16,260 nt of DNA from a virus. The DNA lies in the UHGV virus genome UHGV-0143875; one strand, given 5' to 3'. The number at the start of each line of letters is the position of its first letter. Position 1 is the first letter of the stretch. Both the position numbers and the translations under genes were made by a program. Shown piece by piece: positions 539-13,435 of the stretch. Under the pieces are notes generated by a model. That model did no database searches. It was not told where the DNA came from and saw only the letters and a list, made by a program, of their open reading frames with translations.

Positions 539-614
539 TGGTGCTGGTTAACGGACTTGAACCGCTACCCATTCGCTTACAAGGCGACTGCTCTACCATT
601 GGAGCTAAACCAGC
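539..614 (-). tRNA. tRNA gene, 76 nt, encoded CCA; predicted anticodon UGU (Thr)
   Basis: Minus-strand sequence GCTGGTT-TA-GCTC-CAATGGTA-GAGC-A-GTCGC-CTTGTAA-GCGAA-TGGGT-AGCGG-TTCAAGT-CCGTT-AACCAGC-A-CCA folds by hand into a cloverleaf: 7-bp acceptor stem, 4-bp D stem, TTCAAGT T-loop, U33 and A37 flanking UGU. The 27-43 pair is a G-A mismatch. Not run through tRNAscan. Confidence 0.7.
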
Positions 615-619
615 ATATT

Positions 620-694
620 TGGAGGGGCAGCGTGGACTCGAACCACGATAAGAAGGTTAACGGCCTTCCGTAATGACCTTTATACGACTGACCC
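620..694 (-). tRNA. tRNA-like element (atypical; possible Asn-GUU-like tRNA or pseudo-tRNA)
   Basis: Minus strand GGGTCAG-TC-...-GAAGG-CCGTTAA-CCTTC-TTAT-CGTGG-TTCGAGT-CCACG-CTGCCCC-T-CCA. Perfect T-arm (GGTTCGAGTCC), perfect 5-bp anticodon stem and encoded CCA, but C at position 33, one acceptor-stem mismatch and a poor D-arm. Lies 5 nt upstream of the other tRNA. Confidence 0.4.
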
Positions 695-743: not shown

Positions 744-780
744 CCTTCTAATTATGGCTAAATGGATAATTGCATGTCAA
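744..780 (-). promoter_or_regulatory. Candidate late promoter pR' (and presumed qut region) overlapping the 3' end of Q
   Basis: Minus strand TTGACA (plus 775-780), 18-nt spacer, CATAAT (plus 751-756). Position at the Q 3' end matches the arrangement in 82/21-type Q modules. Promoter call is by eye only. Confidence 0.45.
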
Positions 781-1276
781 GACTTTTAACAGCAATATGT
801 TTAACTTTCTCAACACGTTTACGCATTTTGAAAGCATTTTGCATTGGTTGGTACAAAACAAATAATGATGCTTTCAGGATGTCGTCAATTTCATTTCTAC
901 AGGTTGCCAGTGAAGGTTTTCTCCATCCCTCGCCACCACGTCCACACATCTTGCGTGGCTTTGCAGTCGCGTGATAGTAGGATGCAATTGCTCGCTTAGA
1001 TGAACCATGAGCGTAGTAGCTGAGGAGGATGCCAAAGGCTTTCTTGTCAATGCACATGACGGAATCAACGACCTGAGAAATCAACATTCCATCATCATCA
1101 TTGCACATTGGCCTTGTCATAATTCTTCCCGGCTCTACGCTCTCCATGAACTTCGCTATTACGCTGCTCATGCGCTTTTCCAGACGACCTGAATAAACCC
1201 ATGCGCCCCACAGTTCAAGCCATCCATTCAGCCAATCGTGCTGTTCTTTGGTGAGGTTTAGTTCTCTTATACCCAT
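758..1276 (-). CDS. Q: Late-gene antitermination protein Q (non-lambda type)
   Basis: 172-aa ORF ([35 protein letters not shown]...MCNDDDGM...) in the Q position between the nin region and the lysis cassette; resembles Q proteins of lambdoid prophages from recall. ATG at 1274-1276 overlaps the NinI stop. Confidence 0.75.
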
Positions 1277-1938
1277 GCGACTTCTCCCTGTACCTGAATC
1301 AATGTGAGGTTTCCGCAGAACACTGCGCCGGTATCGATATACATCTGGTTGGCAAATTTGAGTGGTTTCACTGCTGGCGTATGACCAAAGATGAACGTGT
1401 CCGCGCCTTTGATTTCTTTCACGATCCCGTCTTGTGAGTTGCTGATTCGTTCGCGGTTCCAGATTATCTGCTGATGATCAACTGGCTTTCCGAACTCGTA
1501 TTCATCACAAGGATAATCGGCGTGGCAGATGACATATTTTTTATCTTTGCTCACCAGTTCGATGATTAACGGAAGTTCTTCTGCTTTATGGGCAAGAGCT
1601 TTAGCCAGAATTTCTTTGTCGTAATCGAGATTAAAGAACCAGCCACCGCCATCAAGCAGCCAGTGATTAACGTTTCCACGCTCTGATAAGCCATCAATCA
1701 TCATTTGCTCATGGTTTCCACGTACAGCTCTGAACCAGGGGAATGTGATTAATTCCAGACATTCGACGTTCTCTGTACCGCGATCAACCAAATCGCCCAC
1801 CGAGATAAGCAGGTCTTTTTTGTTGTCGAATCCAATCGTATCCAGTTTGTTCATCAGGTTCGTGTAGCATCCGTGCAGGTCGCCAGCTACCCAAATATTT
1901 CGGTATTTGCTGCCATCAATTCTTTCGTAGATATTCAT
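1267..1938 (-). CDS. ninI: Ser/Thr protein phosphatase (lambda NinI / ORF221 family, calcineurin-like metallophosphatase)
   Basis: 223 aa containing GDLHG, GDLVDRG and GNHE metallophosphatase motifs; near-identical by recall to lambda phosphatase ([43 protein letters not shown]...). Confidence 0.9.
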
Positions 1939-2549
1939 GCAGCCTCACTTCTGCTGTTTCGCAGTTTTTTAAGTTTCTGTTGATACTCCGCCTTGATGGT
2001 CTTGCACTCTTCGACAGTCCAGCGATGGCGGTTATGGTTTGATTCGATTTCCTCTACTGCTTCCTGCCCGATGCGGCTAATCAGTTCGACGCAATACGGA
2101 ACGAGATTTCCGCTTTTGTGCTGGTTGCACACCACGCATTGCTTGTGAATATTGCGTTCATCAAATCGGAGTTGAGGTGCCGCAGCAGTTGTCCGGTAAT
2201 GTCCGGCATCCCACTGAGCAGACGTGAGCGTTCCGCACGAGATACATGGTAAGTCGCGGTCTCTTTCTCTGATGAAGGCGTTTACGGCTTGTTGGGCTTG
2301 TTTAATCCAGTAACTGCGGGGCTTTAAGGCGAGTTTCCGAATCTTAAGTTTATCTTTCTGTTTCTGCTCCTCTCGTCGTCGTTTCTTCTCTGCTGCTTTT
2401 TCCGCTTTTTCGCGTTCTTTACTTCGTCGTTCGAGTGCTATCTTGGTTCCACACTCTGGAGAGCACCACCACTGATTAGCGAATGCAGGGTGAAACCATT
2501 CCCGGCATTCATCGTTTTTACATCGTCTTCGCGCTGGTTTAGCCATCAT
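1935..2549 (-). CDS. ninG: NinG (Rap-like recombination-promoting protein)
   Basis: 204 aa, Cys-rich with a basic coiled segment; matches lambda NinG by recall; ATGA overlap with ninI. Confidence 0.85.
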
Positions 2550-2733
2550 CTTCTTCCTCGTGCATCGAGCTATTCGGATCGCTCATCAGTTCTGCGCAGC
2601 AGTGCTCACACACGTGAACTTCCAGCACATGCAGCTTCTGACCGCAGTTAGCGCACGTTAAAGCTCGCTCGACGCTTTCTTGTTCGTAACTTCGATTTGT
2701 GTCAATCACCTTGTTTTCCTCATGCGGTTCCAT
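2539..2733 (-). CDS. ninF: NinF-like small zinc-ribbon protein
   Basis: Internal ATG at 2731-2733 of the long ORF 2539..3003 gives [64 protein letters not shown]; the C-terminal two thirds match lambda NinF by recall. The upstream part of the 154-aa ORF overlaps the next gene in another frame and is treated as non-coding. Confidence 0.6.
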
Positions 2734-2848
2734 TTGGCCTGTAACAGCCCGTAGACATAATCGAATGTCTTTACCTGGCTTTCTGTGGGGATTGGTTTCT
2801 TGCGGGATTTGGTGCGTTTGGTAGGAGTAAAAATCAGGTTGTCTAACG

Positions 2849-3022
2849 CTATTTGAGTAACGATTCGTCGCTGTCTCGCCATACGTCCTCCTTTTCCTGA
2901 GGTAGTGGTAACACCCCTGTTGGTGTTCTTTCACACCGGAGACACCATCGATTCCAGTAAGGTTGCCCGGGTCGAAAGCGATCGTCTTCCTTTCGCTCTC
3001 CACATCGATAACAGTGCTTCAT
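2849..3022 (-). CDS. 57-aa CxxC...CxxC zinc-ribbon protein (NinD/ORF57-like by size and position)
   Basis: Start moved to Met7 of ORF 2849..3040 ([34 protein letters not shown]...), giving an ATGA start/stop overlap with the upstream methyltransferase gene. Identity with lambda NinD is not verified. Confidence 0.5.
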
Positions 3023-3609
3023 GCGATCACCATTTTGCATGGTTTAATCGCCATGCCGGGAGCCAGTTCAAAATCGGAGTCGCACTGATTGCCCCACATA
3101 TCCCACCCGGTCACTTTGTCGCGGCTAAATAACTCACAGCGCGGCACGTCGCCAAGCAACTTAGCTAACATGTCTCTTACGATCGGTGGTTTTGCACTGT
3201 GCTCCATTCTCGGTGCGGTAAAGTGCTGGCATATTGAAGCGTCCATTCTCTCAGGCAACCGCCCTCGAACAGCAAACAAGCAATCCTCGCTATTTGCCCG
3301 GGTCATATGCCCCATTCCGATCGCACTGTTGCCTTTGTGCTTATTGGTTTTGTGCCAAGTAAAGCCTTTCATAGTCATCAACCTGAATCCCCACGCCTCA
3401 ATTACCTTTAGCGCTTCGGCTGGCTGTGTCGGCACCCACCACATCGCTAACAAGCAAGATTCTGGATCCGCTAAATCCCATACTGGCAGTCGGCAAATGT
3501 CCTGAACATTCATAACATCGTATTTATGTCCAGCACCGCGATTGCCATCGTTGGCTTTGTCGCGATATTGCCAAGGCGGATCTGCGTAAATAAGTCGGTA
3601 TTTGTTCAT
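3019..3609 (-). CDS. DNA N6-adenine methyltransferase, MT-A70/DPPW family (orphan, no restriction partner seen)
   Basis: 196 aa starting [15 protein letters not shown]...; the DPPW motif near the N-terminus is the catalytic signature of phage Dam-like adenine methyltransferases. Occupies the slot between ninB and ninD (the lambda ninC position). ATGA overlap with ninB. Confidence 0.8.
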
Positions 3610-4046
3610 GCAGCTTTATCTCCCCATCTCGCTTTCCACTCCAGAGCCAGTCGCGCTTCGTCTGACCACTTAACGCCACGTTCTGTACCGAATGCCTGTA
3701 TAAGCTCTAATAGCTCCGCAAATTCGCTTACACGCATCCTGCTGGTTGACTGGCCTATTACCACAAAGCCATTCCCGGCAAGGTTAGGAACAACGTCCTG
3801 CTGCTTTAATGCTGCGGTAAACACACACTTCCAGCTTTCTGCATCCAGCCAGCGACCATGCCATTCAACCTGACGAGAGACGTCACCAAGGCAAGCCCAA
3901 AGCTTTCGATTCTGGTCTAAGCTGCGGTTGCGTTCCTGAATGGTTACTACGATTGGTTTGGTTGGGTCTGGAAGGATTTGCTGTACTGCGTGAATAGCGT
4001 TTTGCTGATGTGCTGGAGATCGAATTTCAAAGGTTAGTTTTTTCAT
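3606..4046 (-). CDS. ninB: NinB (Orf family recombination mediator)
   Basis: From ATG at 4044-4046: MKKLTFEIRSPAHQQNAIHAVQQILPDPTKPIVVTIQERNRSLDQNRKLWACLG...; near-identical to lambda NinB/Orf by recall. The ORF-track start 18 nt upstream is probably a non-ATG artefact. Confidence 0.9.
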   Translation of the reverse strand: MKKLTFEIRSPAHQQNAIHAVQQILPDPTKPIVVTIQERNRSLDQNRKLWACLGDVSRQVEWHGRWLDAESWKCVFTAALKQQDVVPNLAGNGFVVIGQSTSRMRVSEFAELLELIQAFGTERGVKWSDEARLALEWKARWGDKAA

Positions 4047-4061
4047 GACTTCCCTCTCCCC

Positions 4062-4094
4062 CAAATAAAAAGGCCTGCGATTACCAGCAGGCCT
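4062..4094 (-). terminator. Intrinsic terminator tR2 (upstream of the nin region)
   Basis: Minus strand AGGCCTGCTGGTAATCGCAGGCCT (8-bp perfect stem) followed by TTTTTATTT, between ren and ninB, exactly where lambda tR2 lies. Confidence 0.8.
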
Positions 4095-4119: not shown

Positions 4120-4410
4120 TCATCTTTTAACTCCATATACCGCCAATACCCGTTTCATCGCGGCACTCTGGCGACACTCCTTAAAAATTAGGTTCGTGCT
4201 CATCTTTCCTTCCCGTTCTTCCTTGGTAGCAAACCGGTAATACACCGTTCGCCAGACCTTACCTTCGATAACCAGAAGACCTGCCCGTGCCATTTTAGCC
4301 GCGGCCTGATTTATGCTGGTTACTGTTGCGCCTGTTAGCGCGGCAACGTCCGGCGCACAGAAGCTATTATGCGTCCCCAGGTAATGAATAATTGCCTCTT
4401 TGCCCGTCAT
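4120..4410 (-). CDS. ren: Ren (Rex-exclusion escape protein)
   Basis: 96 aa MTGKEAIIHYLGTHNSFCAPDVAALTGATVTSINQAAAKMARAG...; matches lambda Ren by recall; positioned after P. Confidence 0.9.
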   Translation of the reverse strand: MTGKEAIIHYLGTHNSFCAPDVAALTGATVTSINQAAAKMARAGLLVIEGKVWRTVYYRFATKEEREGKMSTNLIFKECRQSAAMKRVLAVYGVKR

Positions 4411-5108
4411 ACACTTGCTCCTTTCAGTCCGAACTTAGCTTTGAGTTCTGCGATCTTCGCCAGAGCCTGTGCACGATTTAGAGGTCTACCGCCCATGACA
4501 GGAAGTTGTTTTACTGGTTCAGGGATCGCCTCACCACGGTTAATTCTCGCAGTCATATGGACAAGCTCATCTGCGGCCTTACGGCGTAATTCCGCATCAG
4601 TAAGCGCATTGGCCCGCATGTTCTGATACAGGTTGGTAACCAGCCAGTAGTGCGCGTTTGATTTCCACGGATAAGACTCCGCATCCGGATACAGGCCTCG
4701 CTTCCGGCAATACTCGTAAACCATATCAACCAGCTCGCTGACGTTTGGCAGTCCGGCGATAACGGATGCTTCTTCCCGGCACCATGCAACAAACTGCCCG
4801 GGTGATGGCAGAAATGGCCGATTCTGCCGACGGGCTACGCGCATTCCTGCGTTAACCTGTTCCATTGTGGTGATCCCGTTTTCCCGGAAAGCCAGAACCC
4901 ACTGGCGGCGGATTTCGTTCAGTTCGTTCTGGTCACGGTTAGCCAGACTCGCCGGGAAAGTTGCCAGTAACTGGCTGAACACACCGTTGATGATCTGCGC
5001 TACCTGCTGTACCTGCGGCTTTTCGTCGTACTGTTCCGGCATGTTGTTGGCGATCCTACGCATCTGCTCACGGTCAAAGTTAACCATCTGTGCGGCGATG
5101 TTTTTCAT
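4407..5108 (-). CDS. P: Replication protein P (DnaB helicase loader)
   Basis: 233 aa MKNIAAQMVNFDREQMRRIANNMPEQYDEKPQVQQVAQIINGVF...; lambda P by recall; overlaps O and ren at both ends. Confidence 0.95.
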   Translation of the reverse strand: MKNIAAQMVNFDREQMRRIANNMPEQYDEKPQVQQVAQIINGVFSQLLATFPASLANRDQNELNEIRRQWVLAFRENGITTMEQVNAGMRVARRQNRPFLPSPGQFVAWCREEASVIAGLPNVSELVDMVYEYCRKRGLYPDAESYPWKSNAHYWLVTNLYQNMRANALTDAELRRKAADELVHMTARINRGEAIPEPVKQLPVMGGRPLNRAQALAKIAELKAKFGLKGASV

Positions 5109-6004
5109 AGATCCACCCCGTAAATCCAGTCTGTGTTTGTCAGGTCGAGTTTTGGTTTGCTGGCTGTCACGACTGCCTGTTGCTTGTTACGGTTGATTTC
5201 GAGTTGGGTCCACTTGTCGCGGAGTTTGGCCGGACTTAGCACGTTACCGGACCAGAAGTTGTCCTGGCATGCCCAGCGGAACAGTACACACATGTCGCGG
5301 TGGTTACGTCCGTCACGTTCACGCATCAGGCGGATATCGTTAGCCCACCCTGCAAAATTCGGTTTTCTGGCTGATGGCGCGATGGTCTTCACCATGTCAA
5401 ACATCCACTCTGCGGCGGTCAGGTCTTCTGCTGTCCCCCACTTGCTGCCGCTCTGAATTGCAGCATCCGGTTTCACCACAGAAAGGTCGTTTTCTGGCTG
5501 GTCAGAGGATTCGCCAGAATTCTCTGACGAATAATCTTTTCTTTTTTCTTTTGTAATAGTGTCTTTTGTGTCCCCCTGTTTTGAGGGATAGCAATCCCCC
5601 AATTTGAGGGATGTTTTATCCCTCGTTTTAGGGGATTTTCCCTCGTTTTGAGGGATGCACCATTCTGAGATGTTTTTGTTTGGTCCAAACATGCCGCCTT
5701 GCTGCTTGATAATATTCATTCTGACGAGTTCTAACTTGGCTTCATTGCACCGTTTGACAGGTAACTTTGTAATCTCGCTAAGTTGAGAATCGGTGATTCT
5801 GTCCATTGGTTTATTCCACCCATAGGTTTTACGCAGAATGGCAAGCAGCACTTTAAACTGTCGCTTGGTCAGATCTGCGCCTGAATAAGCCTCAAGCAGC
5901 ATATTTGATAGTCTGGCGTAACCATCATCGAGATCTGCCACATTACGCTCCTGTCCGGCAAAGTTACCTCTGCCGAAGTTGAGTATTTTTGCTGTATTTG
6001 TCAT
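5105..6004 (-). CDS. O: Replication initiator protein O
   Basis: 299 aa MTNTAKILNFGRGNFAGQERNVADLDDGYARLSNMLLEAYSGADLTKRQF...; lambda O by recall; contains the origin iterons within its coding sequence. Confidence 0.95.
   Translation of the reverse strand: MTNTAKILNFGRGNFAGQERNVADLDDGYARLSNMLLEAYSGADLTKRQFKVLLAILRKTYGWNKPMDRITDSQLSEITKLPVKRCNEAKLELVRMNIIKQQGGMFGPNKNISEWCIPQNEGKSPKTRDKTSLKLGDCYPSKQGDTKDTITKEKRKDYSSENSGESSDQPENDLSVVKPDAAIQSGSKWGTAEDLTAAEWMFDMVKTIAPSARKPNFAGWANDIRLMRERDGRNHRDMCVLFRWACQDNFWSGNVLSPAKLRDKWTQLEINRNKQQAVVTASKPKLDLTNTDWIYGVDL
5537..5656. other. Origin of replication (ori-lambda type): four iterons plus adjacent A+T-rich region, inside O
   Basis: Four ~18-19-bp iterons of form TCCCTC-N6-GAGGGA at about 5571-5589, 5594-5612, 5618-5636 and 5639-5656, flanked at 5537-5570 by the A+T-rich tract ttttcttttttcttttgtaatagtgtcttttgtg. 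Confidence 0.9.
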
Positions 6005-6449: not shown

Positions 6450-7804
<1,355 letters not shown>

Positions 7805-8446: not shown

Positions 8447-8983
8447 ATGTCATCAATCCGCTTAACTACGAGAATGAAAGAGAAAATCGCTCGTAACGCT
8501 TTAATTAAATCTGGGGTTTTCACTGAGCTTGAAGAAGTAACAAAGTTAAAGAACAAGCTTGCACTTGACGCCAGAGTTGTTGCGTTTGGCGGTAAAAAGA
8601 AAACTGAGGAAGTGGATCAGTTATCATCCAAGTTAATGGCTATAAGCGAAGAACTTGAAAAGCTGGGATGTTCATTTTACTCATGCGATGCCCGTTCAAC
8701 TTCAATTTATCTGACTGTATCTGGCAGAAGGGTTGGCTGGTATTCATATGGGAAAGACGGCAACGGCGAAGATATATTGCTCCCTACTCCGACCAAAGAT
8801 AAATGCATGTTTAGCGCAGAACACGAAATAACAAAAAGGTTTGATGAAATCTGCGCATTGCAACAAAAACTTGAAGCCAAGAAAAAGGATATCGAATCAA
8901 ATGTATGGGCTGCTTTGAACTCAGTCACAACAGTTAAGCGACTTATTGAAGTTTGGCCTGAAAGCAAAGAGTTGCTACCATAA
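8447..8983 (+). CDS. Hypothetical protein, 178 aa, in the N-proximal accessory slot (lambda ral/sieB position)
   Basis: ATG at 8447 preceded by GAGAGGA RBS; MSSIRLTTRMKEKIARNALIKSGVFTELEEVTKLKNKLALDARVVAFGGKKKTEEVDQ...; charged, Lys-rich, no obvious transmembrane segment; lower GC than flanks by eye; no resemblance to Ral or SieB as recalled. Confidence 0.6.
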   Translation: MSSIRLTTRMKEKIARNALIKSGVFTELEEVTKLKNKLALDARVVAFGGKKKTEEVDQLSSKLMAISEELEKLGCSFYSCDARSTSIYLTVSGRRVGWYSYGKDGNGEDILLPTPTKDKCMFSAEHEITKRFDEICALQQKLEAKKKDIESNVWAALNSVTTVKRLIEVWPESKELLP

Positions 8984-12919: not shown

Positions 12920-13435
12920 ATGGCGTTAACACACCGCGAACTCTGTCAGATTGCGTACAAGTTCCTTAAGCGCAACGGGTTCAAGGTTTGTTTTCATGAC
13001 CGCTTTATAGCTGTAACCAGTACCGGAGAACAGCCAGATGCTATGGGATTCAGAAATTCAGCATCATGCCTGATAGAGGCGAAGTGTTCTCGTGCTGACT
13101 TGTTGGCAGATAGAAAAAAGCGTTTCCGTAAAAATCCGTCTCTTGGAATGGGCGACTGGCGATTCTTTATTAGTGAGCCGGGAATTATTTCAATTGAGGA
13201 TTTACCTCCCGGCTGGGGATTACTTCACGTTGTTAACGGAAGAGTACGGAAAGTACATGGATGGCCCAAGGGGAATTGCTGTTGGGGTAACCCTGAAGAT
13301 AAACCTTTTATTGGGAATAAGCAGGTTGAATGCGATTACATGTTATCTGCATTAAGGCGCATGGAGTTGAGAGGGCACCTTAATGAAATATATGACGGTG
13401 TAATTGTTAATAAGAAAGAAGGAAACGCGGCATGA
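12920..13435 (+). CDS. Hypothetical protein, 171 aa, with a PD-(D/E)xK-like motif (possible nuclease fold)
   Basis: ATG at 12920 after AAGGAG RBS: MALTHRELCQIAYKFLKRNGFKVCFHDRFIAVTSTGEQPDAMGFRNSASCLIEAKCSRADLL...; the D-x(n)-E-A-K arrangement resembles restriction-endonuclease-fold catalytic motifs. Inference only. Confidence 0.5.
   Translation: MALTHRELCQIAYKFLKRNGFKVCFHDRFIAVTSTGEQPDAMGFRNSASCLIEAKCSRADLLADRKKRFRKNPSLGMGDWRFFISEPGIISIEDLPPGWGLLHVVNGRVRKVHGWPKGNCCWGNPEDKPFIGNKQVECDYMLSALRRMELRGHLNEIYDGVIVNKKEGNAA

Follow-up and report, generated by a model that had tools for sequence, protein, structure and literature searches.

A 196-aa MT-A70 family N6-adenine methyltransferase is encoded in the nin region of a lambdoid prophage, where its gene has replaced ninC gene for gene, with both junctions at gene boundaries. 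By analogy with characterised relatives, and with somewhat better than even confidence, we favour the reading that it would serve as a stand-alone, delayed-early, Dam-like DNA adenine methylase of a lambda/434-type prophage, topping up GATC methylation on replicating phage DNA. The window, i.e. the whole 16,260-nt stretch of virus genome UHGV-0143875 that was analysed, is the early region of this prophage in reverse orientation. The order on the minus strand is cro, cII, O, P, ren, a terminator, ninB, the methylase gene, ninD, ninE, ninG, a NinI-type phosphatase gene and Q, and the plus strand carries a 434-type cI, N and the genes for a RecT recombinase and an integrase. The window cI matches the 434 repressor of the PDB with E=9e-38, which indicates 434-type immunity. 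In comparison with lambda, ninH is missing from the window. The features used below are as follows.

758-1276, minus strand: Q
1267-1938, minus strand: gene for a NinI-type phosphatase
1935-2549, minus strand: ninG
2706-2882, minus strand: ninE
2849..3022, minus strand: ninD, the downstream translationally coupled gene (Pfam NinD PF17466, E=9.3e-37), inside a block 90% identical to lambda
3019..3022, minus strand: ATGA overlap of the methylase stop TGA with the ninD start ATG ('tcat' on the plus strand, read directly)
3019..3609, minus strand: coding sequence of the 196-aa MT-A70 family N6-adenine methyltransferase, stop codon included, with an ATG start (ORF list and translation)
3025..3605, minus strand: cassette-private DNA, 581 bp without a lambda counterpart, in place of lambda ninC 41085-41947 (863 bp), by blastn
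3571..3582, minus strand: codons of catalytic motif IV, residues 10-13; the reverse complement of the plus strand is GATCCGCCTTGG, translated as D-P-P-W
3606..3609, minus strand: ATGA overlap of the ninB stop TGA with the methylase start ATG ('tcat' on the plus strand, read directly)
3606..4049, minus strand: ninB (orf), the upstream translationally coupled gene (Pfam NinB PF05772, E=1.1e-54; 98% nucleotide identity to lambda)
4071..4094, minus strand: tR2-like intrinsic terminator in the ren/ninB gap, found by scan (8-bp stem with 6 G-C pairs, then TTTTATTT)
4120-4410, minus strand: ren
4407-5108, minus strand: P
5105-6004, minus strand: O
6693..6721, minus strand: pR-like promoter (TTGACA, 17 nt, GAAAAT) in the 434-type cI/cro gap, from a consensus scan alone with 10/12 matches

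A sequence-only reading of this DNA had proposed an MT-A70/DPPW methyltransferase of 196 aa, with no strand given; the gene lies on the minus strand, and the family assignment is borne out. The protein covers the Pfam MT-A70 profile PF05063 from end to end (profile positions 1-172 of 172) and scores 88.9 bits where the cut-off is 23.9 (E=4.8e-25); at such a score chance is excluded as the source of the match. It was also assigned to phrog_359 ('DNA methyltransferase') in PHROGs with E=8e-107 and matches the PADLOC model MTase_II ('Type II methyltransferase') with E=4.9e-70, and NCBIfam gave zero matches for it or for the other ORFs of the window. Motif IV, (D/N)PP(W/Y), is present near the N terminus as DPPW. 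An alignment of 32 homologues from many genera has no substitution at D10, P11 or W13, shows P12 conserved at 90% or more, and contains 60 further invariant positions (63 in total); because of these invariant residues the enzyme looks functional.

The AF2 model, which was built with the 32 homologues as input (pLDDT 79, pTM 0.81), forms a single catalytic domain, lacks a separate target-recognition domain, and has two loops (residues 19-24 and 97-103) that are flexible or modelled with low confidence. When the model was submitted to Foldseek, the top matches were METTL3, MTA1 and METTL4 (E~1e-12, TM ~0.66-0.70), the best being METTL3 with E=6.9e-13 and TM 0.68, with MTA1 at E~4e-12; the MT-A70 fold, for which the earlier reading had suggested a check, is thus confirmed at the level of a model. 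A PDB sequence search returned Tetrahymena MTA1-type MT-A70 chains at E~1e-10 and METTL3 at E~1e-6. The eukaryotic MT-A70 enzymes METTL3 and ciliate MTA1 have the catalytic fold and the DPPW motif in common with the window methylase; however, the eukaryotic enzymes pair with an inactive paralogue to form heterodimers and have additional domains, whereas the window enzyme is a single 196-aa domain with no paralogue. From the precedent of beta-class enzymes (PMC7544214) we assume that it would form a homodimer. Altogether, these data show a member of the MT-A70 family with a Rossmann-type fold and an intact DPPW motif, and the best explanation of its sequence is a predicted SAM-dependent, beta-class, adenine-N6-methylating enzyme.

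The same reading had put the gene in the slot that lambda gives to ninC, with ATGA coupling on either side, and in this it was right: the flanks are NinB and NinD by Pfam, the lambda order is ninB-ninC-ninD, and the two ATGA overlaps are present at 3606-3609 and 3019-3022. Its description of the gene as inserted in the nin region has to be replaced by that of a precise swap. In blastn against lambda, window 5190-3606 corresponds to lambda 39500-41084 at 98.2% identity and ends exactly at the ninB stop codon, while window 3024-1935 corresponds to lambda 41948-43043 at 90.4%, with homology restarting 2 nt before the ninD ATG. Homology to lambda breaks at the ninB stop and at the ninD ATG, and therefore the 581 bp of methylase DNA have been swapped for the 863 bp of ninC. 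This is shown to be a gene-for-gene replacement with junctions at gene boundaries, not an insertion. Lambda ninC itself, between ninB and ninD, spans 41081-41953 and has the same 4-base overlaps as the methylase gene. NinC (PAPS-reductase-like, 290 aa) thus sits in the identical slot with identical ATGA overlaps to ninB and ninD, but it belongs to an unrelated family with zero sequence homology to the methylase by blastn, and the likeness is positional only.

The ribosome-binding stretch GGGGAGATAAAGCTGC 5' of the methylase gene is within the shared ninB block that is 98% identical to lambda, and on the other side the 57-aa NinD that starts at the 3019..3022 overlap matches positions 1-53 of 57 of the Pfam NinD profile. 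ATGA overlaps are used habitually in nin regions (PMC8022706). The locus has what marks a lambdoid nin-region cassette, namely a place between P/ren and Q, tight packing, ATGA overlaps and exchange at gene ends. In GC content the cassette (50.4%) is no different from its flanks (49.4-52.7%).

The terminator at 4094-4071 lies upstream of the methylase gene in the pR operon, within the 98%-identity match to lambda 39500-41084, and its place in the ren/ninB gap is where tR2 lies in lambda. A scan of the minus strand found no promoter-like site between this terminator and the methylase gene. Because of the terminator at the tR2 position and the lack of an intervening promoter-like site, the methylase would be read from pR only after N antitermination and would be repressed in a lysogen. 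The pR-like promoter at 6693..6721 is the presumed source of the transcript. Transcription from pR after N-mediated readthrough of tR1 and tR2 would make the methylase a delayed-early lytic gene, and both lambda homology and the consensus scan suggest that it is probably made only in lytic growth and silent in the lysogen.

Among 5426 complete E. coli genomes, 39 carry the same gene at 95-99.7% nucleotide identity, all 39 copies being chromosomal, and among the E. coli matches listed every row is annotated as NinB, MT-A70 family methyltransferase and NinD in succession. One of the 39 carriers is a P22-like prophage. It is found in strain 09-00049, whose copy (RefSeq WP_001046389.1, named 'MT-A70 family methyltransferase' and known from E. 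coli prophages) is the same gene, with 99.7% nucleotide identity and 196 aa, and like the window gene is flanked by ninB and ninD and overlaps both of them at its start and stop codons; this prophage, however, has a DnaB-type helicase and RusA, whereas the window has a lambda O-P-ren backbone and 434 immunity. The best coverage of the window by any complete E. coli genome is 63%, and the window is a new mosaic of known modules. With a more sensitive search, which reaches more distant alleles, MT-A70 genes were found in 867 of the 5426 genomes (~16%); all are annotated as MT-A70 family methyltransferase, and most of this wider set adjoin a PerC-family gene.

Beyond E. coli chromosomes, tblastn found relatives of the methylase in 517 phage records, including epsilon15 and phiV10, with 119 named Stx2- or Stx2a-converting phages and 189 Vibrio phages among them. 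In a large protein collection 1078 clusters match at E<=1e-10, the nearest of which (a 90%-identity cluster with 228 members) is 99% identical to the window protein. Genomic context was compared between 41 loci, taken from one genome per species, and the annotated phages, and two arrangements recur. In the first, the gene comes after NinB or elsewhere in the nin region, as in Erwinia phage 59 and in prophages of Izhakiella, Rahnella, Ewingella, Erwinia tracheiphila and Sodalis; NinB is directly upstream in Erwinia phage 59 and in the Izhakiella, Rahnella and Ewingella prophages. The second is an early-left operon near AlpA, PerC, DUF1317 and integrase genes, in epsilon15-like prophages of Citrobacter, Klebsiella and Kluyvera. 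The methylases of epsilon15 (Salmonella), phiV10 (E. coli) and Erwinia phage vB_EhrS_59 are 78-83% identical to the window protein and of equal length. The vB_EhrS_59 copy follows NinB in the nin region as in the window, whereas in epsilon15 and phiV10 the gene belongs to the early-left operon, with PerC-like, DUF1317 and integrase genes nearby. The papers searched hold no biochemical characterisation of these three enzymes. The recurrence of NinB followed by MT-A70 in unrelated prophages fits a functional link, and conservation of nin gene order explains it equally well. The methylase is a common, movable phage gene that travels as a one-gene cassette. RefSeq already lists both the gene and where it sits, the family is widespread with characterised members, and the finding is an ordinary one.

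The DNA target, which the sequence-only reading had held to be beyond inference, now looks more accessible, as the tested members of the clade, i.e. BZS1 p32, the Tn1549 enzyme and M.EcoGV, are GATC-specific. PhiBZS1_p32 of Serratia phage vB_SspM_BZS1 is, like the window gene, a phage MT-A70 orphan methylase, and BLASTP gives it 44% identity to the window protein. In a dam- host it rendered plasmid DNA MboI-resistant and DpnI-sensitive, i.e. it is GATC-specific (PMC7556043). It differs from the window enzyme in that it is 220 aa long and has 24 extra residues inserted in the loop matching window residues ~93-94, and its gene adjoins integrase and excisionase genes and is not in a nin region. 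M.EfaBMDam of Tn1549 (Enterococcus) is the founding prokaryotic MT-A70 DNA methylase and is GATC-specific according to Radlinska et al. 2005, as cited in PMC7556043; its gene is part of a conjugation module in a Gram-positive transposon rather than of a phage. For a Tn1549-like copy from E. faecium the identity to the window protein is ~43%, and from its context and a matching 41% identity to BZS1 p32 we infer that this copy is the published M.EfaBMDam. M.EcoGV, from the Stx phage of O104:H4, is listed as GATC in PMC6602927 and PMC10810198, the latter of which describes it as highly similar to M.EcoPA8orf6770P.

Over the full domain the window protein is 43-66% identical to these three GATC reference proteins or their proxies, which places it in the same prokaryotic MT-A70 subclade, with the caution that methyltransferase specificity can change at 44-66% identity. 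By sequence it is nested among enzymes that have GATC specificity in common across wide divergence. In the window itself GATC is moderately under-represented (41 sites observed against 63-76 expected), a count that neither supports nor refutes the GATC reading.

Other substrates have to be weighed against this. The Stx2a-phage enzymes M.EcoPA8orf6770P/M.EcoGV are, like the window enzyme, prophage-borne single-domain MT-A70 proteins with DPPW and without an endonuclease. M.EcoPA8orf6770P, the only close relative that has been purified, is almost inactive alone on dam- DNA in vitro; when complexed with PNB-2, which the upstream winged-helix gene encodes, it is reported to prefer 16S rRNA and 30S subunits, with a >13-fold preference for RNA over DNA (PMC10810198). 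TL-2011c gp13, used as a proxy for M.EcoPA8orf6770P/M.EcoGV, is 65% identical to the window protein over residues 3-187, and the TL-2011c locus shares synteny with phiPA8, as an exact match to the published terminator lies between its PNB-1-type and PNB-2-type genes. These data, and the fact that METTL3 and METTL4, both RNA enzymes, are among the nearest solved structures by fold, speak for an RNA methyltransferase that would act on 16S rRNA or other RNA in phage development and alter translation, with DNA as a side substrate at most, a scenario that we consider rather unlikely. MTA1, a DNA enzyme, matches the fold no less well than METTL3, methylation of GATC in DNA in vivo is known from other members of the clade (PMC7556043), and the modified rRNA base was not identified in PMC10810198. 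Moreover, rRNA targeting needs PNB-2. The window has a catalytic subunit homologous to that of the PNB-2 holoenzyme, but the gene upstream is ninB where a co-transcribed PNB-2 gene would be adjacent, and the C-terminal tail (last ~27 aa) that the authors of PMC10810198 tie to PNB-2-bearing strains is absent; the TL-2011c alignment stops at residue 189/208 and the last 9 residues of the window protein are unrelated. With tblastn there was no PNB-2 homologue in the window better than E=7.6, queries with PerC-like protein and epsilon15 gp31 against the window were negative, and PNB-2 adjoins a methylase homologue at none of the 41 genome loci. The Stx-phage gene also lies near int in the early-left region and is reported to be transcribed from a stationary-phase promoter (PMC10810198), features that the window gene lacks. 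Because PNB-2 and the tail are missing and shorter variants without PNB-2 do occur, as acknowledged in PMC10810198, the 16S rRNA route is less likely here. At a minority of loci a small winged-helix protein is encoded beside the MT-A70 gene, and the window has no such neighbour; two of these proteins reach Pfam thresholds, Tyrion gp30 and the product of the Izhakiella downstream gene, and their mutual similarity is marginal. Ren, which is wHTH-like and encoded two genes upstream of the methylase, was considered as kin of these proteins and rejected (best BLASTP E=0.04 in a 13-sequence database, not significant), its Pfam signals being below threshold. If DNA is the substrate, the enzyme might still recognise a motif other than GATC, or have a relaxed, near non-specific activity like that of M.EcoGII and provide broad restriction protection. 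The small size, the lack of a target-recognition domain and the single-domain model with its two loops would suit such an activity, non-specific prophage adenine methylases exist (e.g. M.EcoGII and OS31 p25), and purified M.EcoPA8orf6770P alone has weak, non-specific activity (PMC10810198). We nevertheless regard this as unlikely: the papers present the M.EcoGII/OS31 p25 type as separate from the MT-A70 enzyme, and GATC is every published DNA specificity in this MT-A70 subclade.

A different question is whether the methylase could be the modification half of a restriction-modification or defence system whose nuclease partner went unrecognised. The PADLOC Type II methyltransferase match could be read in this sense; a Type II system would have a cognate endonuclease adjoining the methylase, and here the neighbours are NinB and NinD, as the flanking genes are in lambda. 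Neither next to the methylase nor elsewhere in the window was a nuclease family recognised by Pfam, PHROGs, PADLOC or NCBIfam, in agreement with the sequence-only reading, which had seen no restriction endonuclease partner. The one candidate that emerged is the uncharacterised ORF 12920-13435, in which the family-invariant residues E37, D40 and E53-x-K55 form a PD-(D/E)xK-like motif; its model has a pLDDT of 86, and its Foldseek matches are weak, all of them being PD-(D/E)xK nucleases and none reaching E<=0.001. As a hidden partner it was rejected, being 9.3 kb away in the opposite operon and unlinked to the methylase: it is missing from the fetched integrase-to-tail region of the P22-like prophage with the 99.7%-identical methylase, and its protein clusters have 1363 and 729 members against 228 for the methylase, which makes it far more widespread. 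Clustering of the neighbours at 47 loci revealed no conserved or universal one; they are heterogeneous, and the largest families have 6 members each (NinB upstream, PerC upstream and RusA downstream). A restriction partner is thus extremely improbable in our view, and the orphan status of the methylase stands for the window, which does not extend to the late half of the prophage, where a distant partner might lie. A link to Nmad5 was likewise rejected; the two co-occur in some prophages, but Nmad5 is carried by 211 genomes and the methylase allele by 39, and the P22-like prophage with the same methylase has no Nmad5 in its fetched region. Very improbable, too, is an inactive or decaying passenger gene without function. 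It is true that nin-region genes are dispensable in lambda (PMC8022706) and that many prophage methylases are inactive in lysogen methylomes (PMC6602927); however, the reading frame is full-length, the profile is covered end to end, DPPW is intact, the 63 positions are invariant across homologues from many genera, and the annotated E. coli copies are CDS, with no pseudogene flag on the single fully tabulated one.

In the reading that we favour, that of a delayed-early Dam-like DNA methylase, the enzyme would act on replicating phage DNA and incidentally on host DNA, with GATC, the site of the tested relatives, as the most likely target. Host Dam is known to leave the virion DNA of lambda and P22 under-methylated (PMC8022706). 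Where replication outruns host Dam, the methylase would give progeny DNA that is fully methylated in the Dam manner. This would shield the progeny DNA from restriction systems that cut GATC, and could influence further Dam-dependent processes too. An anti-restriction role, as the sequence-only reading had proposed, would thus be plausible. A further reading, which we hold to be distinctly improbable, is that the nin-region version is something other than a simple anti-restriction Dam mimic; the enzyme might act on rRNA or mRNA without PNB-2, or its Dam-like activity might serve the flanking recombination genes, ninB/Orf directly upstream and ninG/Rap ~0.5 kb downstream. If this were true, full GATC methylation would deprive MutH of hemimethylated sites and so weaken the mismatch-repair barrier between diverged lambdoid genomes.

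In a dam+ lysogen the methylase gene is probably not expressed and host Dam would hide any GATC mark, so that the methylome of such a lysogen would probably be blank; therefore a finding of no new motif in a dam+ host would not refute methylase activity. The practical value of the analysis is small and lies in a corrected annotation picture, with a swap in place of an insertion, and in a predicted GATC specificity. Concerning small phage MT-A70 enzymes in general, the literature conflicts on whether DNA or RNA is the substrate, with GATC methylation in vivo on one side and 16S rRNA with PNB-2 on the other, and the partner-less nin-region allele described here would be a clean test case for this question.

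Small winged-helix proteins of the MarR/TrmB-like type were found immediately adjoining MT-A70 genes, recurrently, in a minority of prophages. Among the compared loci carrying MT-A70 genes (L-numbers), such neighbours are encoded at:

L002, 3067-3498 and 4329-4682 (two winged-helix neighbours)
L006, 2278-2505 (one)
L008, 4588-4875 (one)
L011, 3558-4001 (one)
L012, 3486-3998 (one)

The proteins display marginal similarity to one another and some of them have a PerC-like C terminus. They may be analogues of the targeting subunit PNB-2, the winged-helix partner of the Stx-phage MT-A70 homologue M.EcoPA8orf6770P.

Directly following gene N in the window, at the ral/ea10 position of lambda, lies:

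8447-8983, plus strand, Nmad5-family protein ("nucleotide modification associated domain 5"; Pfam PF18757, E=2.9e-58)

The product of the nmad5 gene in Dhillonvirus phages is sensed by the Tmn defence system (PMC11846954). The Nmad5 gene was found in 211 of the 5426 E. coli genomes, and it was rejected as a methylase-linked gene, no linkage being observed in the E. coli genome counts and the P22-like prophage comparison.

The immunity region is of the phage 434 type and is joined to an O-P-ren-ninB block displaying 98% identity to lambda. An ORF occupies the rex slot of lambda directly 3' of cI:

6450-7403, phage-434-type immunity region (cI N-terminal domain against the 434 repressor in PDB, E=9e-38)
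7328-7804, plus strand, phrog_2651 ORF (function unassigned in PHROGs)

Within this ORF, a signal-peptide-like stretch of 20 residues comes after an internal start, and the product may be a secreted protein or a lipoprotein made in the lysogen.

Further along the same strand, a candidate nuclease-like protein is encoded:

12920-13435, plus strand, 171-aa protein with a PD-(D/E)xK-like motif

It has no match in Pfam, NCBIfam or PDB sequences, and its homologues are widespread among enterobacterial prophages, with E37, D40 and E53-x-K55 invariant, which forms the PD-(D/E)xK-like motif. With the AF2 model (pLDDT 86), Foldseek returned weak matches, none at E<=0.001, that are nucleases throughout (e.g. 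Hjc, R2 endonuclease, HincII and AF1548). The protein may represent an undescribed nuclease family.

At the other end of the window, two features were observed around ninG and Q:

539-694, minus strand, tRNA-Thr(TGT) and tRNA-Asn(GTT), two genes immediately 3' of the gene for the Q antiterminator
1929-1938, overlap of the ninG stop with the NinI-type phosphatase start, ninH being absent when compared to lambda

Lambda 43044-43232 is skipped in the homology between window and lambda. Stx phages, too, carry tRNAs at the position after Q, where they precede the toxin genes. The window stops short of whatever comes after the tRNA pair.

MT-A70 genes and other methylases were also found in further settings. 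In some E. coli genomes an MT-A70 gene has as its neighbour not PerC or NinB but a gene encoding a DGQHR-domain protein, a distinct context that may be defence-related:

NZ_CP023853.1, ~2853404, and NZ_CP178656.1, ~1405853 (matches H158 and H162 of the E. coli search), MT-A70 beside a DGQHR-domain protein

Erwinia phage vB_EhrS_59 carries, a few genes past its MT-A70 gene in the nin region:

L005, 4368-5432, Dcm-type cytosine methylase

Mannheimia phages have an MT-A70 or Dam-family gene between the replication genes upstream and ninG downstream. Methylase cassettes appear to land commonly in the nin region.
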